This document shows positions 8,736 through 15,188 of a DNA stretch of 32,000 nt, piece by piece. The DNA comes from Candidatus Helarchaeota ASGARD archaeon Hel_GB_B (GTDB lineage: Archaea > Asgardarchaeota > Lokiarchaeia > Helarchaeales > HEL-GB-B): NCBI GenBank assembly GCA_005191425.1, contig SUPR01000034.1, forward strand, positions 1,471-33,470, written 5' to 3'. The position numbers and the translations under genes were made by a program. The notes beneath the pieces are model-generated. The model saw only the letters and a list, made by a program, of their open reading frames with translations, made no database searches and had not been told where the DNA came from. Numbering within the stretch: position 1 is the stretch's first letter; every line of letters starts with the position of its first letter.

Positions 8736-9566
8736 ATGATAATTTCAGTCGAGCTGCTTTTCGTAGGAAATGAATTATTGAACGGAAAAATTATAAATAC
8801 AAATGCACAATTTTTATGTGAGAAAATCACAAATATTGGAGCCCAAGTTAGACGCATTATAACCATACCAGATGATGTTGATATTATTTCAGATACTATA
8901 AAATACATTTTAAAAAGTAAACCTGGTTTCTTAATTATTTCAGGCGGTTTAGGACCTACCTTCGATGATATGACATTAAAAGGAGTAGTTAAAGCACTAG
9001 GAAAAGAATTTGAACTTAAATTAAATCAAGACGCCTTAGATATGATAGAAAAGCAATACAAACTTGCGGAAAAATTGAATATTTTAAAAAATAAGGGATT
9101 AAATGAACATAAGATCAAAATGGCAACTATTCCATCAAATAGTATTCCCCTGTATAATTCTGCTGGAATAGCTCCAGGAGTCCATATTAAATATTTTGAT
9201 AATATAGAAATATTTTGTTTACCAGGCGTTCCGAAAGAAATGAAATCAATATTTAATAGCTCGATAAAATCAATAATTATGAATAAAGTATCTCAAACTG
9301 GTCTAAAATTTTCAAAAACAGGTTTTATTGTACAAGACTGTGTTGAATCTGAAATCGCGCCATTTGTAAACCAGATAATGAGTGAAATTTCAAATGTTTG
9401 GATAAAAACTCAACCGCGATTAAAAAATGGAAAGCCTTGGGTTGAAGTATTTATTACATGTCTTGATAAACAAGAAATTTCAAAAGATAAAGTTTCGGAC
9501 GCTAAAAATAGACTAATTAAATTATTAGAATCTAATGATAAATCTATTAAATTAATAGATGAATAA
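8736..9566 (+). CDS. CinA-like / molybdopterin-binding-fold protein (archaeal competence/damage-inducible protein A family)
   Basis: VGNELLNGKIINTNA, SGGLGPTFDDMT, NSAGIAPG and LPGVPKEM motifs, with a short C-terminal domain containing ESEIAP. Confidence 0.9.
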   Translation: MIISVELLFVGNELLNGKIINTNAQFLCEKITNIGAQVRRIITIPDDVDIISDTIKYILKSKPGFLIISGGLGPTFDDMTLKGVVKALGKEFELKLNQDALDMIEKQYKLAEKLNILKNKGLNEHKIKMATIPSNSIPLYNSAGIAPGVHIKYFDNIEIFCLPGVPKEMKSIFNSSIKSIIMNKVSQTGLKFSKTGFIVQDCVESEIAPFVNQIMSEISNVWIKTQPRLKNGKPWVEVFITCLDKQEISKDKVSDAKNRLIKLLESNDKSIKLIDE

Positions 9567-9579
9567 TTAATATTATTAA

Positions 9580-10359
9580 GTGAAAAATATGATTTTTCAA
9601 TTTATTATAGGGACAGCGGGCTCGGGAAAATCGACATTATGCAGTGCATTAAGTAATTACATGAATTCACAAGAAGAAATTGATGCAATAACAGTTAACC
9701 TTGACCCAGGTACTAAAAATTTGCCATATAGGCCAGATATTGACATTAGAGAATTTATAAATACTGAAGAGATAATGCTCCAATATAACCTTGGTCTGAA
9801 CGGTGGAATAATTGCGAGTGTTGACATGATAATTAATTATATTAATGATTTAAAAGATGAAATTGAAATATTAAAACCAGACCACGTTATTATTGATACA
9901 CCAGGACAGATGGAATTATTTGCATATAGAAGTATAGGAAAATTTTTAATTTCCAATTTGATAGATAAAAATGGTGGAATTCTATACTTAGTTGACCCTA
10001 ACCTGGCAAAAACACCATCAGGTTATTTATCTACACTGCTATTAGGTCTTTCAGTTCAAATTAGATACCATGTCCCTCAAATTTATTTATTATCAAAAAT
10101 AGATATTTTGTCAGAAAAAGAATTTGAAAATATATTAAATTGGTCAAATAATGAAGACAAACTAAAAAATGCGATTGAATCAGAAAGTATAGGTGAAAAA
10201 AGGGAATTTAATATTGCAGTAAATAGTCTTCTCAATAAAATAAATTTATGTGGGTCTTTACTCCCAATTTCTTCGTTAAGACCTGAAACTATGTTAAATC
10301 TATATGCAGAAATTTCGAGAATTTTTTTAGGTGGTAAAGATTTTGATGAAGAGTTTTAA
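9580..10359 (+). CDS. GPN-loop GTPase family protein (motif reads GLN here)
   Basis: GTAGSGKS P-loop, NLDPG, LGLNGGI at the GPN position, DTPGQMELF and SKID. An alternative start is ATG 9589. Confidence 0.92.
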   Translation: MKNMIFQFIIGTAGSGKSTLCSALSNYMNSQEEIDAITVNLDPGTKNLPYRPDIDIREFINTEEIMLQYNLGLNGGIIASVDMIINYINDLKDEIEILKPDHVIIDTPGQMELFAYRSIGKFLISNLIDKNGGILYLVDPNLAKTPSGYLSTLLLGLSVQIRYHVPQIYLLSKIDILSEKEFENILNWSNNEDKLKNAIESESIGEKREFNIAVNSLLNKINLCGSLLPISSLRPETMLNLYAEISRIFLGGKDFDEEF

Positions 10360-10413: not shown

Positions 10414-13080
10414 TTATGATTTTGCTTGTCTCTTTAAGTCTTCAGCAGTAGCTTTAAAGCCTTCTGCGATATCTTTTTCGCCTAATTGCTGTGATATTTT
10501 TGATGCTTCCATATAGAATTGTGCAGCCCGTTCAAGATTACCATCAACTGTTGCTGCCTCTGCTTCAATAATGGCTTTTCTACGTTGTTCTTCAAGAGAT
10601 GCTCGAGAAGTTTCCAATTCAGACTTTTTCCTGAATTCATTTGCTTTATTTTTGTAAGCGATAGACATTTCAGAATCGCCCATATCCGCGGCAATCTTAC
10701 TTGCTATAGTGTAATATTGAGCTGCGTCTTCCCAACGTTCTTCAGTTATTGCGACTTCTGCAATTTCAATTGATTCCTTCAATTGTGATTCTAACTGCTC
10801 TATTTTTTCAGCTTGCCTAACACGTTCTAATTCAGTTTTTCTTCTACGCCTTAATTCAGCTTCTCTTCGCTTGGCTTCTTTTGATTTTTCGTTTAATTCT
10901 CTTGCCATTTCTTTATCACCAATTTCAAGAGACAATTTTGAGGCGAGTTTATAGTGTCTGCTTGCATCTAATAGATTTCCTTGGTTTTCTGCTTCAGCTG
11001 CCATGTCTAGAACCTTTTTACGTTCTTTTTCTAATGATTCTCTTTGGGCGGCTAATTCTTTTCTGGTGCGTTCTTCTACTTCTTTTTTACGTTCTATTTT
11101 CCATTTTTTCTTTAGCTCGTCCGTTTTACCCTGCAAAGTATATGCTCGACTGGCATATTCAGCTGCTCTATCTTCATCGGACAATTCTACTGAAATCAAT
11201 GCAGCTCTCTGCCACTTTTTAGAGGCATCAGAAAATCTTCCTTGTTTATACAGTTTTTCTGCTTCTTTTACAATATTCTGTCTTATAATGCGCTTTCTTT
11301 CTTTGGTCTTTTTCTTCTTTTTACCTTCGAAATGGATTCTTTTATAGGCATAAACTGGAGTGAAAAGAACTAATATAGTCGCAATTGTAAAATAGAGTAT
11401 AAAAATCAAAAAAGGTTCAGTTAAACCCCCAAAAATTGTTAAAATTTGACCAATTGTAAACGATCCAAAAATTTGAGTATCTTGGACTCCAAGCATATTA
11501 ATTAAATTAATAAAATAATCAATAACATCAGTTTTTAAATAATGACCGACTTTCCATGGGGCTAAAGTTATTAAGATTAAAGCAGTTATCCCTACTGCGC
11601 TCAATAACGGTATTAGAGCGCTGTATTCTAATTTCTTTTCAATATCCTTTTGTAATGGAGGTAATAAATATACTGTTTCAGCTTTTTTAATATTTTTAGA
11701 GGGGCCACGAGTTCTAATTTTTCCAAACCATTTAGCAAAAGTTGGATAGGTAAACTTCCCTGAGAAATATTTCATAAGATTTTCACTAGTCCCTTCGATT
11801 ATTACATCAGTTTTTACAGATTCACCCCTAGTAATAGTTGCTTCACCTTCTCTAAAATTTACAGTTAAAGCACCAATATCCCAAATTTTAATTACTACAG
11901 TAAATTCGCTACCCCAACTGAAAACTTCAGAAGCAATTTGTGGTTCCATTAATCTTAAAGTTATTACAGCTCTTACAGCTCTTGCAACTCTGTCCAATAG
12001 TTCATCTCTCTTTTGTTTTTCTTTGGTACGGCACTCATCAGCTTTTAATTGAAATTCCTTAGCTTTGTCTTTTTCTCCTGCATCTTTTGATAATTCTGCT
12101 GCTTTAATAAATATTCTAGCCGCTGCTAAATATTCTTCAGATTCAAGAAATTTATCGCCTTTATTAAGTAGATTTTCACGAATAACTCGAATAACTTTGC
12201 GTTTTTTCTCCATACGCCATTCGGCTCTTAATTGAGGTTCTTTTTCTCTAATATCTCTGGCTTGAGCTGTAAATCCAGTTGCGACCTCTTTTTCTCCTAA
12301 ATCTAGTGATAGTTTTGCTGCTGTTTCATAGGCTTCTGCCGCTGCTTTAAATTGACCTCTTTCGAGCATTTTCTCTGCTTTACCTAACATTTTAGCTCTT
12401 TGGTCTTCTAGTCTGATACGCTCTTTTTCAAGTTCTGCTCTTCTTCTTTCTTCCTCTTCTCTTTTTTCAATATCTTTGGCAATTTCACGCATCTCTTCTG
12501 CTCTGGCACTAAACATTGCAGTCCGCTCTGGTTGTGCCATATCTTCCGATATTTTTGCAGCCTCTTCATATAGATCACCTGCTTTTCTATATTGTTCTTT
12601 TGCAACAGCATCTTCCGCTTTTCTCAAGACTTCTCTCCGCTTAACTTCCAACTCTTTTACTTTTTGTTGTAATTCAAATTTTCTTCTTAATTCAGCTTTT
12701 TTACTTGTTAAATCATTTACTTTGTTCCGATATTCGCTAATCATGTCTTTGTCATTAATCTGTTTACTAAGTTCAATTACTTTATTATAATCTTTGATAG
12801 CATCATCAAACCGACCTTCGTTAACAGCTGCATCACCAGATTCTATTAACATTTCTCGTTCTTGTTCGATTTCGGCTTTACGTCTATCTAATTCCTTTTG
12901 CTTTTTGATTTCCATTTCTTTTTTAGAAAGTAATTTTACTTTTTCTTCAAAGATTTTTACTCTATCTTTTTCATTTAATTGTTCACTAAGATCTCTCGCA
13001 ATAGAATAAAATTTAAGAGCTTCAGAAATATTCCCTTTTGACTCAGATTCTTCTGCGGAAGCAATTACTTTTTTTCTCTG
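10414..13080 (-). repeat. Intragenic protein-level repeat: nine ~66-87-aa units
   Basis: Approximate consensus R-xx-[VL][LI]-xx-A-xxxxxx-G-x-[FY]-xx-A-xxx-Y-xx-A-xx-[IL]S-xx-[LM]G-[ED]-x-[ED]-xxxx-F-xxx-A, each unit followed by an E/K/R-rich coiled-coil spacer. It is visible only at the amino-acid level. Confidence 0.8.
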
Positions 13081-13164
13081 TTCTTCCAATTCTTTACGTT
13101 TTTGTTCTAATTCCCGTTTCTTTTCTTCTTCACTGAGTTCTTTTTTTTCTCCTTCGTCACTCAT
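10414..13164 (-). CDS. Membrane protein with 5 + 4 MIT/SNAP/TPR-like helical repeats flanking an SCP2-like lipid-binding domain and two TM helices
   Basis: Repeat cores begin near aa 30, 103, 177, 256, 329, 628, 715, 795 and 861. The SCP2-like segment spans aa ~395-503 (VVIKIWDIGALTVNFREGEATITRGESVKTDVIIEGTSENLMKYFSG...GKIRTRG). Hydrophobic helices lie at aa ~514-537 and ~585-607. Confidence 0.8.
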   Translation of the reverse strand: MSDEGEKKELSEEEKKRELEQKRKELEEQRKKVIASAEESESKGNISEALKFYSIARDLSEQLNEKDRVKIFEEKVKLLSKKEMEIKKQKELDRRKAEIEQEREMLIESGDAAVNEGRFDDAIKDYNKVIELSKQINDKDMISEYRNKVNDLTSKKAELRRKFELQQKVKELEVKRREVLRKAEDAVAKEQYRKAGDLYEEAAKISEDMAQPERTAMFSARAEEMREIAKDIEKREEEERRRAELEKERIRLEDQRAKMLGKAEKMLERGQFKAAAEAYETAAKLSLDLGEKEVATGFTAQARDIREKEPQLRAEWRMEKKRKVIRVIRENLLNKGDKFLESEEYLAAARIFIKAAELSKDAGEKDKAKEFQLKADECRTKEKQKRDELLDRVARAVRAVITLRLMEPQIASEVFSWGSEFTVVIKIWDIGALTVNFREGEATITRGESVKTDVIIEGTSENLMKYFSGKFTYPTFAKWFGKIRTRGPSKNIKKAETVYLLPPLQKDIEKKLEYSALIPLLSAVGITALILITLAPWKVGHYLKTDVIDYFINLINMLGVQDTQIFGSFTIGQILTIFGGLTEPFLIFILYFTIATILVLFTPVYAYKRIHFEGKKKKKTKERKRIIRQNIVKEAEKLYKQGRFSDASKKWQRAALISVELSDEDRAAEYASRAYTLQGKTDELKKKWKIERKKEVEERTRKELAAQRESLEKERKKVLDMAAEAENQGNLLDASRHYKLASKLSLEIGDKEMARELNEKSKEAKRREAELRRRRKTELERVRQAEKIEQLESQLKESIEIAEVAITEERWEDAAQYYTIASKIAADMGDSEMSIAYKNKANEFRKKSELETSRASLEEQRRKAIIEAEAATVDGNLERAAQFYMEASKISQQLGEKDIAEGFKATAEDLKRQAKS

Positions 13165-13635: not shown

Positions 13636-14409
13636 ATGGATATGTTTTTAAAAGGAAAAGTTGCTTTTGTAACAGGTGGTGCTTCAGGAATTGGAAGACA
13701 AGCATGTTTAACATTTGCAAGTGAAGGAGCAAATGTGGTCGTTGCAGATAAACAATATGAAAAAGCTGAAGAAGTAGCCGAAGAATGCAAAAAATTAGGT
13801 GTAGATGCAATTGCACCACATTGTGATGTTACTATCCTTGAAGAGTCATCTGCAGCTGTAAAGTCTGCGATTGATCATTTTGGAAAAATTGATATTTTAG
13901 TCTGTTGTGCAGGAATATTAAGAGATTCAATGGCACATAAAATGACAGAACAACAATGGGATGAAGTATTGAATGTCCATTTAAAAGGACATTGGTGGTT
14001 ATGCCATGAAGTTATTCCCCATATGAAACAAGAAAAATATGGTAGAATAGTCTTTATTTCATCAACAGCTTTTAAGGGAAATAGAGGACAAGCTAATTAT
14101 TCTTCAGCAAAAGCAGCAATGGTCGGATTGGCGAAAACATTGGCTGAAGAATTGGGCTATTTAGGAATTACAGCTAATGTTGTTGCTCCAGGGCTAGTAC
14201 ATACACCTTTAACAGATGCTTTTATAAAAAGTGATAAGAGTAAACCAATGATAAATTCAATTTTATTAAAAAGAAGAGAAGATATAGGTCCACTTTTTGG
14301 TACTACACAAGATATTGCAAATGCAATTGTCTTCCTTTCATCAGATAGAGCATCATATATTACAGGACAAGTATTGGTAGTTGCCGGTGGCGCATATAAA
14401 ATAGCATAA
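13636..14409 (+). CDS. fabG: Short-chain dehydrogenase/reductase, 3-oxoacyl-ACP/CoA reductase-like
   Basis: TGGASGIG, CCAGILRD, and YSSAK catalytic YxxxK following GNRGQANY; NVVAPG. The symbol is a family-level label. Confidence 0.88.
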   Translation: MDMFLKGKVAFVTGGASGIGRQACLTFASEGANVVVADKQYEKAEEVAEECKKLGVDAIAPHCDVTILEESSAAVKSAIDHFGKIDILVCCAGILRDSMAHKMTEQQWDEVLNVHLKGHWWLCHEVIPHMKQEKYGRIVFISSTAFKGNRGQANYSSAKAAMVGLAKTLAEELGYLGITANVVAPGLVHTPLTDAFIKSDKSKPMINSILLKRREDIGPLFGTTQDIANAIVFLSSDRASYITGQVLVVAGGAYKIA

Positions 14410-14615: not shown

Positions 14616-15188
14616 ATGGAAAAAATAAGCGAACCTTATACTAGATTAGTCAATTTTGATAACCATGAACTTTTTAGTAAAATCATTTTGGAACAAATTG
14701 TAAAAATAAAAAAATATTTACTGATAGGAACTTACAATTTACAAGATATTCGCTTAAATTTGAATAATAAATTTATTTCTCTTTCAGATGTTTTAATTAA
14801 CTTGGCAAATAAAGGTGTAATAATCTATTTTTTAATACAACCTCGAGCCTATAAAACAAAATTAATTACAAAATTACGAAATAATATAAAGAATGGTAAT
14901 TTAAGAGTTAAATCTTGCTCTCGTATACATCTTAAAACAATAATTATAGACTTAAAATTAGTATATCTTGGGTCAGCAAATTTGACTGGTTTTGGTCTGG
15001 GTACTCGTTCAGCTATGAAAAGAAATTTTGAAATTGGACTTGTAACTACTGAAGAGAGTTTGATAGCCCAAATTACTCGCAATTTTTTAAATATTTTTGA
15101 TGGAAAATATTGTAATAAAAAAACATGTTACTATTATAATAATTTTAAATCAAAAAGACCTTGTTATGGAATAAATCATCAAAATTGA
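14616..15188 (+). CDS. Phospholipase D superfamily protein with a single HKD motif (Nuc-like endonuclease or PLD)
   Basis: HLKTIIID (HxKxxxxD), followed by GSANLT and RNFEIG; C-terminal C-x4-C-x11-C tail. Confidence 0.85.
   Translation: MEKISEPYTRLVNFDNHELFSKIILEQIVKIKKYLLIGTYNLQDIRLNLNNKFISLSDVLINLANKGVIIYFLIQPRAYKTKLITKLRNNIKNGNLRVKSCSRIHLKTIIIDLKLVYLGSANLTGFGLGTRSAMKRNFEIGLVTTEESLIAQITRNFLNIFDGKYCNKKTCYYYNNFKSKRPCYGINHQN

Follow-up and report, generated by a model that had tools for sequence, protein, structure and literature searches.

An SCP2-type domain and nine three-helix units flank a transmembrane helix pair in a 916-residue Helarchaeales protein

The stretch of DNA analyzed here (the window) comprises 32,000 nucleotides of contig SUPR01000034.1 from the Candidatus Helarchaeota archaeon Hel_GB_B and carries, on its minus strand at positions 10414..13164, an open reading frame (ORF) that is open throughout and encodes a protein of 916 amino acids (aa; P0001). 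Positions given below count along the whole window, and residue numbers refer to the encoded protein. The protein combines five N-terminal and four C-terminal three-helix units with a pair of transmembrane (TM) helices between the two arms and an SCP2-type alpha/beta domain placed between the fifth unit and the first TM helix. The folds involved, a bundle resembling both the tetratricopeptide repeat (TPR) and the MIT domain, the SCP2 fold and TM helices, are all known, whereas their combination is undescribed.

The nine units, each of ~50 aa, align with one another without gaps, starting in the alignment at about residues 33, 105, 178, 258 and 330 in the N arm and 627, 714, 794 and 860 in the C arm, and they share the pattern R-x3-[LIV]-x2-AE-x5-G-x4-A-x3-Y-x2-AA-x2-S-x3-GEKD-x4-F-x3-A at a mean pairwise identity of 27%. 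To test the repeats without circularity, we trained one hidden Markov model (HMM) per arm on the units of eight orthologues and ran each on the opposite arm. With the C-arm HMM the N arm yielded five units and no more (32.7-48.5 bits, E 3e-12 to 4e-17), and with the N-arm HMM the C arm yielded four and no more (37.6-46.6 bits), while 100 shuffles of the N arm reached a maximum of 6.5 bits. The cross-arm HMMs and the gap-free alignment bear out the nine repeats, five on one side of the TM pair and four on the other, that a preliminary description of this DNA had claimed, and the spacings found here (72, 73, 80 and 72 residues in the N arm; 87, 80 and 66 in the C arm) match the values of ~73/74/79/73 and ~87/80/66 given there. 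All nine units occur at matching positions in each of the eight family members tested. A distant relative outside the HMM training (P0032, 790 aa, ~34% identity in the core) has seven, with a C arm down to two units and N-arm units at residues 31, 104, 177, 257 and 331, practically the same positions as here; retention of the N-arm pitch in so distant a protein indicates that the geometry of the arm is under selection.

Every unit listed here is supported by the cross-arm HMMs. Unit 1 (12919..13080, residues 29-82), also supported by the orthologues, consists of one TPR motif and a capping helix that together form a three-helix knot, with helices predicted by AlphaFold2 (AF2) at residues 12-42, 46-62 and 66-116. 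It is followed by unit 2 (12703..12861, residues 102-154), which gives the best match to Pfam TPR_2, unit 3 (12484..12642, residues 175-227), unit 4 (12244..12402, residues 255-307) and unit 5 (12028..12186, residues 327-379). In the C arm lie unit 6 (11137..11295, residues 624-676), immediately after a basic stretch that follows the TM pair, and units 7 (10876..11034, residues 711-763), 8 (10636..10794, residues 791-843) and 9 (10438..10596, residues 857-909). The placement of units 3, 7, 8 and 9 also rests on the alignment, that of unit 7 additionally on conservation, and that of units 4 and 5 on the AF2 model.

Run with the family alignment, AF2 predicts a strict succession of long helix (~50 aa), short helix (17 aa) and long helix, each knot consisting of the last part of a long helix, the short helix after it and the first part of the long helix that comes next. 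Adjacent knots therefore share a continuous helix, the third helix of one running on into the first helix of the next. A conserved proline kink (REKEP) lies between units 4 and 5. Glu, Arg and Lys abound in the charged linkers between units, whose charge the preliminary description had noted in calling them charged coiled-coil spacers; the charge stands, but the model shows single continuous helices with no sign of pairing. Units 4 and 5 modelled alone reach a pLDDT (predicted local distance difference test) of 96.4 and a pTM (predicted template-modelling score) of 0.72, and the full-length model a pLDDT of 78.9 and a pTM of 0.38, the latter meaning that no confident pairing of arm with arm is predicted.

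Between unit 5 and the first TM helix lies an alpha/beta domain of ~115 aa (11665..12012, residues ~385-500), a part of the protein that the preliminary description leaves out. A family profile run against the PDB ranks the SCP2-like domain of MFE-2 and insect SCP2 first, and hhalign aligns the central domain of the family with an alignment of stand-alone Asgard SCP2 proteins at 97.2% probability (E 4.4e-11). These stand-alone proteins, of 113-166 aa and from another Asgard family, were retrieved by a phylum-wide whole-genome search with the SCP2 region, and the four that were scanned are clear members of Pfam SCP2 (E ~1e-12 to 1e-13); the relative P0032 itself reaches 20.4 bits in Pfam SCP2. 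In the AF2 model, residues 408-499 form five strands plus helices, the five-stranded alpha/beta fold of SCP2, and Foldseek of the full model retrieves UbiJ-SCP2 (template-modelling score 0.65-0.72, root-mean-square deviation (rmsd) ~3 Å), AF1534, human SCP2 and the helical-plus-SCP2 part of alkylsulfatases. SCP2 is present in each of the ten structural neighbours found for the ESM Atlas model. Homology at the profile level and the predicted structure thus agree that residues ~385-500 are a bona fide SCP2-type domain, for which lipid binding is predicted. Its first helix directly continues helix 3 of unit 5, a rigid junction, and its last helix is followed by a conserved LPPLxK linker, with TM1 starting 13 residues beyond that helix; an invariant polar hairpin, FxEGEATITRGE, lies within the domain. 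Several of the stand-alone SCP2 genes (L013-L020) adjoin a large conserved gene of ~490 aa, and others a gene of ~360 aa or one that, on our reading of the sequence, looks to be of acyl-CoA synthetase type.

Two hydrophobic blocks, at residues 512-539 and 571-607, are kept in all 16 aligned orthologues, and AF2 places TM helices at residues 509-534 and 583-618, with an amphipathic helix and a short hydrophobic helix between them. From hydrophobicity and the model we assign TM1 to 11554..11625 (residues ~514-537), after the LPPLxK linker, and TM2 to 11344..11418 (residues ~583-607); the intervening, presumably extracytoplasmic loop (11419..11553, residues 538-582), which holds the two predicted small helices, is variable in length and sequence (conservation 0.48). 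TM2 is followed by a Lys/Arg-rich juxtamembrane stretch, KRIHFEGKKKKKTKERKR (11290..11343, residues 608-625), evident in the sequence and in the orthologues. Each of the 16 orthologues has 6-8 Lys or Arg residues within the 15 positions that follow TM2, compared with 0-4 in the loop between the TM helices, an excess that by the positive-inside rule would place both arms in the cytoplasm (N-in, C-in). A signal peptide is absent, as judged from an N-terminus highly charged with acidic and basic residues. The two TM helices, the lack of a signal peptide and the Lys-rich stretch after TM2 had all been proposed before and are confirmed here, and the cytoplasmic placement of both arrays proposed with them gains support from the Lys/Arg distribution; the proposed helical hairpin stands as regards the two helices, but these are separated by a poorly conserved loop of ~20-45 aa. 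A three-TM topology, with the second hydrophobic block counted as two TM helices, was considered and rejected, since the first part of this block runs for only ~10 residues before a Gly/Pro turn in most orthologues, and also since export of a highly charged 500-residue N arm that lacks a signal peptide is unlikely. No other part of the protein is as poorly conserved as the TM helices and the loop (mean column conservation 0.48-0.61), which therefore look like an anchor rather than a sensor.

Conservation declines outward from the membrane in both arms and peaks in the lead-in helix of the SCP2 domain (residues 380-407, 0.94), the most conserved segment of the protein. The units of the N arm score 0.86 (unit 4), 0.77 (unit 5), 0.75 (unit 3), 0.70 (unit 1) and 0.59 (unit 2, the lowest of all units), and those of the C arm 0.89 (unit 6, the highest), 0.85 (unit 7), 0.80 (unit 9) and 0.75 (unit 8). 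Helices 2 and 3 of unit 4, which the conserved kink follows, are near-invariant in the 16 orthologues, and together with parts of units 6 and 7 they are unchanged among orthologues only 55-58% identical overall, beyond what maintenance of the fold would need. In unit 4 this invariance extends to surface positions, as expected of a binding site. The peak on the membrane-proximal cytoplasmic side, together with the low values of the TM helices, the loop and the distal units, fits an anchor with a cytoplasmic working core, and the pattern points to a membrane-proximal core on the anchor that comprises units 4-7 and the SCP2 domain, with the distal knots as extensions.

Across 301 Asgard genomes, the family turned up in six of seven from Helarchaeales, where the conserved gene is present as a single copy, and outside that order only in two of 69 from the largest sister family; a few Lokiarchaeia have a shorter version. 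An exhaustive HMMER search with the SCP2-TM core against 1.84 billion representatives yielded only two real related clusters, a further match (P0033, 752 aa) being discarded as a repetitive false positive. Every named database relative is annotated as "hypothetical protein," the closest as "hypothetical protein, Candidatus Helarchaeota archaeon." There is no NCBIfam family for the protein and no Pfam family that covers the whole of it, and phmmer with the whole protein against the PDB returned nothing below E 0.05. The DNA occurs in marine-sediment and hydrothermal-vent metagenomes, and among public runs no RNA run is listed as containing it.

The unit had earlier been called MIT/SNAP-like, and this term proves apt for the shape but not for the sequence, which is of TPR class. 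In an exhaustive structural comparison of the model of units 4-5 with the PDB, in which the tool flags Z values below ~13 as common for helical bundles, the best match is the tandem MIT of calpain-7 bound to IST1 (Z 9.8, 129 residues aligned), followed by Sec17/alpha-SNAP (Z 9.7), one knot superposing on three consecutive Sec17 helices with an rmsd of 1.4 Å over 59 residues. Eight further MIT-type domains at Z 7.8-8.9 (NRBF2, USP8, katanin, Atg1, spartin, MITD1 and two Vps4 MIT domains) bring the MIT-type entries in the top 50 to nine, and single domains of Sulfolobus Vps4, katanin, MITD1 and spartin superpose on the unit with an rmsd of 1.6-2.4 Å over 62-70 residues. The three-helix fold of MIT is thus present but does not discriminate, because Rap, LGN, Tom70 and other TPR proteins score at the same Z level and because helical values below ~13 are flagged. 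Matches to multi-TPR proteins over two units have an rmsd of 10-22 Å, and a plakin (spectrin-repeat) fragment of plectin (2odv) aligns over 143 of 161 residues (Z 8.3). Foldseek with units 4-5 found no PDB match at E <= 1e-3, and the Atlas shape search with the same model returned only generic TPR-containing or unnamed clusters.

At the level of sequence, a search of the PDB with the unit profile finds consensus TPR (CTPR) and LGN/Pins chains, and the best 60 matches listed include no MIT chain. Against a cut-off of 27 bits, Pfam TPR_2 gives 28.3 for the N arm by itself and 24.9 for the whole protein, and hhalign aligns the unit with a canonical TPR of the same genome at 92% probability over only 27 columns. 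Pfam MIT (PF04212) remains below its cut-off of 30 bits, with 14.0 bits and, for unit 1 in the genome scan, 16.7, compared with 55.8 for the true Vps4 MIT, and the unit scores no better in it than several other TPR-like proteins of the genome; Pfam SNAP (PF14938) is likewise below its cut-off (19.2 vs 25 bits). Against the MIT domain of the genome's own Vps4, hhalign gives 60% probability (E 8e-5), spanning all three helices with two gaps. The 34-residue helix-turn-helix motif of TPR is present, and in the AF2 model each unit has one such motif and a cap, with long helices between units in place of the three or more adjacent stacked repeats of a TPR superhelix. We conclude that the unit has the shape of MIT and the sequence of TPR and is not a demonstrable member of the MIT or SNAP family.

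The same knot recurs elsewhere in the genome. The unit HMM matched 31 ORFs, in agreement with a six-frame search; some of these, from among the weaker matches, are ordinary multi-TPR proteins, given that the HMM also partly matches canonical TPR proteins. Among the 31 are a multi-TM protein with two units directly past its last TM helix and a bitopic protein of 408 aa with a single-unit tail. In three small GTPases of Arf/Roc/Ras type, 377-450 aa long (C4:6782-8050, L035; C179:3681-4814, L036; C142:15286-16638, L040), an N-terminal extension of ~120 residues is accompanied by one C-terminal three-helix unit; in one of the three this unit aligns full-length with the unit profile (hhalign 92.8%). 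Two giant membrane proteins with no Pfam family (C5:4088-9988, L041, 1966 aa; C106:26849-31849, L042, 1666 aa) have an N-terminal hydrophobic segment, a late TM helix and one or two units in the C-terminal cytoplasmic tail. Two smaller membrane proteins, one of 348 aa (C107:48910-49956, L047/L002) and the one of 408 aa (C128:42141-43367, L048/L008), carry a basic stretch and one or two units right after the last TM helix, the same layout as from TM2 to unit 6 in the 916-aa protein. A soluble protein of 530 aa (C142:2661-4253, L049/L003) consists almost wholly of at least six units with charged linkers, a free version of the arms, and one of 574 aa (C128:10189-11913, L034/L005) joins an N-terminal domain of ~400 aa without Pfam match through an acidic linker to two C-terminal TPR-type units.

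The reading that we favor, with a probability of roughly 0.45, is that the protein is a membrane-anchored scaffold that couples the binding of a lipid or other hydrophobic ligand at the inner face of the membrane with the docking of proteins. Two TM helices would anchor a lineage-specific scaffold on that face, with a cytoplasmic N arm of five knots carried on continuous charged helices at a fixed pitch of ~73-80 residues. This arm would end in the SCP2 domain, held against the membrane ~13 residues from TM1, and the second arm, with its four knots, would begin directly after TM2. The SCP2 domain, which is probably central to the function, may bind or extract a membrane lipid or another hydrophobic molecule, while the knots may serve as docking sites that keep cytosolic partners at the SCP2/membrane spot. 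Units 4-7, next to the membrane, would be the likeliest docking sites, and candidate partners are other knot-bearing proteins of the genome, including the Arf/Roc-type small GTPases. Several observations weigh against this scaffold. The Pfam SCP2 model (PF02036) remains below its cut-off for the single sequence (15.6 vs 21.3 bits); the low pTM of the full-length model leaves the relative placement of arms and core undefined; the unit HMM partly matches canonical TPR proteins as well, so that some of its 31 matches are generic TPRs; isolated TPR-like knots could be purely structural; and the neighbouring genes, encoding a MoCF_biosynth protein, a GPN-loop GTPase and a short-chain dehydrogenase (SDR), hint at no function.

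That the protein is purely a sub-membrane skeleton or spacer, bracing or spacing the membrane with semi-rigid rods like those of spectrin, plakins or EzrA and with no specific docking, is suggested by the predicted continuity of the helices between bundles, by the charged Glu/Arg/Lys-rich linkers, by the extent of the plectin alignment and by the strict retention of N-arm pitch and unit number even in P0032. The surface of such a rod would be expected to drift, yet conservation reaches 85-89% in units 4, 6 and 7 with their linkers, where long stretches are invariant; the SCP2 domain would be left without a role, and single knots at the C-termini of GTPases and in the tails of membrane proteins make no sense as rods, so that we regard this explanation as unlikely. 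The TPR-class signature would equally suit a generic membrane-anchored co-chaperone or assembly factor similar to LapB/YciM, whose central domain would be a degenerate SCP2 fold serving as a mere connector, and the invariant polar hairpin is indeed atypical as the lining of a cavity. However, the predicted units are isolated knots that build no TPR superhelix, and the SCP2 domain seems to retain the whole fold, five strands with helices on their flanks, and is well conserved; this makes the assembly factor a rather improbable solution.

[quoted passage not shown] The MIT shape of the knot, headed by the calpain-7 match and the nine MIT-type entries, is in line with this proposal, as are the three-helix alignment with the genome's own Vps4 MIT and the attachment of the knot to many unrelated proteins, as seen for eukaryotic MIT domains. 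ESCRT components are also encoded, as had been expected: a standard Asgard ESCRT cluster on contig C128 contains Vps4 with its true MIT domain and two ESCRT-III genes, the products of which share a conserved C-terminal helix that in our reading is MIM1-like. Conversely, the Pfam MIT score is no better than that of several other TPR-like proteins of the genome, the unit profile selects TPR proteins, Z values of this size are flagged as common among helical bundles, and the alignment with the Vps4 MIT needs its two gaps because helices 2 and 3 are shorter here. The ESCRT cluster is also unlinked to the gene, which lies on a different contig (C112) among housekeeping or metabolic genes, and the survey across genomes sets the two apart: of 41 genomes sampled from the class, 37 have ESCRT-III, so that a family nearly confined to Helarchaeales is not a general ESCRT partner. 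Neither a genomic nor a phyletic association with ESCRT-III/Vps4 was thus found. Co-folding of the N arm and the C arm with the C-terminal 70 residues of ESCRT-III scored 0.00 (mark 0.32), and the partner's own fold was uncertain; this result counts neither way. A survey of ESCRT proteins (PMC10936438) does not mention the family of the 916-aa protein. Hence no result gives positive support to a role with ESCRT or SNARE proteins, the distribution across genomes speaks against a general one, and an adaptor of this kind seems to us very unlikely.

A bolder extension of the scaffold reading would make the knot an Asgard-wide docking module, the functional counterpart of MIT, that wires together membrane proteins, Arf/Roc GTPases and possibly ESCRT-III, with the 916-aa protein as its membrane hub, the nine knots of which would assemble machinery of trafficking type about an SCP2 domain that extracts membrane lipids or passes them on. 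Although such a hub would be a prokaryotic forerunner of eukaryotic membrane-anchored lipid-transfer and tether proteins, we consider it a long shot.

The gene lies in an AT-rich window (GC 23-33%) on a contig of a 3.5 Mb genome that is 94% complete. It is flanked by a GPN-loop GTPase gene on the plus strand that ends at 10359 and, on the other side, by an SDR gene on the plus strand that starts at 13636, and is therefore monocistronic. The pair formed by a MoCF_biosynth (CinA-like) gene and the GPN-loop GTPase gene (8736-10359 in the window) adjoins the gene in at least three genomes (among them loci L051 and L052), with differing relative orientations, and the SDR gene also recurs near orthologues in varying order and orientation. 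In two of the genomes with this pair beside the gene, a cis-prenyltransferase gene lies a few kb off. Because the orientation and order of the three neighbours change between genomes and an RPA-like gene replaces the usual neighbours at other orthologue loci, the neighbourhood was rejected as a functional link. Apart from the GPN-loop GTPase neighbour, no GTPase, longin or ESCRT genes were found in the window. Two genes away from the ORF, a PLD-like protein of 190 aa with an HKD motif is encoded on the plus strand at 14616-15188.

Neither Pfam, NCBIfam and the PDB nor the literature searched describes a counterpart to the combination of TM pair, juxtamembrane SCP2 domain and nine isolated knots borne by two rods; a preprint on START lipid transfer in Asgard archaea (PMC12139934) names SCP2 only as a class. 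In Helarchaeales, an Asgard lineage, a domain of lipid-binding type is set at the membrane on a rigid, length-conserved scaffold, while the same knot appears on small GTPases and on the tails of giant surface proteins of the same genome. If the knots are docking sites, the protein offers a way into the organization of proteins and lipids at the inner membrane face of Asgard archaea and touches on how eukaryotic trafficking arose; otherwise it is no more than an unusual rod of TPR-like type anchored in the membrane.

Comparison with known systems places the protein between several of them. MIT domains (Pfam PF04212; Vps4, calpain-7, NRBF2, USP8, spartin, MITD1 and katanin p60) have the same small asymmetric three-helix bundle, equivalent to 1.5 TPR repeats, and are likewise attached to many unrelated proteins, whereas the knot has shorter helices 2 and 3, its helix 3 runs on as a rod into the next unit, and the ESCRT locus is unlinked. 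With TPR proteins (TPR_1/2/7/8; PF07719, PF00515 and relatives; CTPR, LGN/Pins and the SHNi-TPR of sNASP) it shares the G8/A20/Y24/A27-type signature in helices 1 and 2, but each knot is one 34-residue motif with a cap, ~20-35 residues of charged helix separate the units, and there is no stacked superhelix to form the usual TPR groove. Alpha-SNAP/Sec17 (PF14938) forms an unbroken, twisted sheet of helical hairpins with a globular bundle at its end, in contrast to the separate knots on rods seen here. Spectrin and plakin rods and the bacterial EzrA are built from three-helix bundles joined by uninterrupted helices, and EzrA is membrane-anchored; the uninterrupted joining helices are common to these rods and the present protein, and the membrane anchoring is shared with EzrA, but the middle helix here has only 17 residues, which results in short knots with an exposed connecting helix, and there is no sequence relationship. 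Finally, known SCP2 proteins (PF02036; UbiJ-SCP2, MFE-2, the C-terminal domain of alkylsulfatases and AF1534) are related to residues ~385-500 by fold and by profile homology, although the single sequence falls below the Pfam cut-off, and in UbiJ and the alkylsulfatases SCP2 is likewise fused to a helical module; what sets the present domain apart is its invariant polar hairpin and its position beside the membrane, where a TM helix beginning 13 residues after its last helix would hold it.

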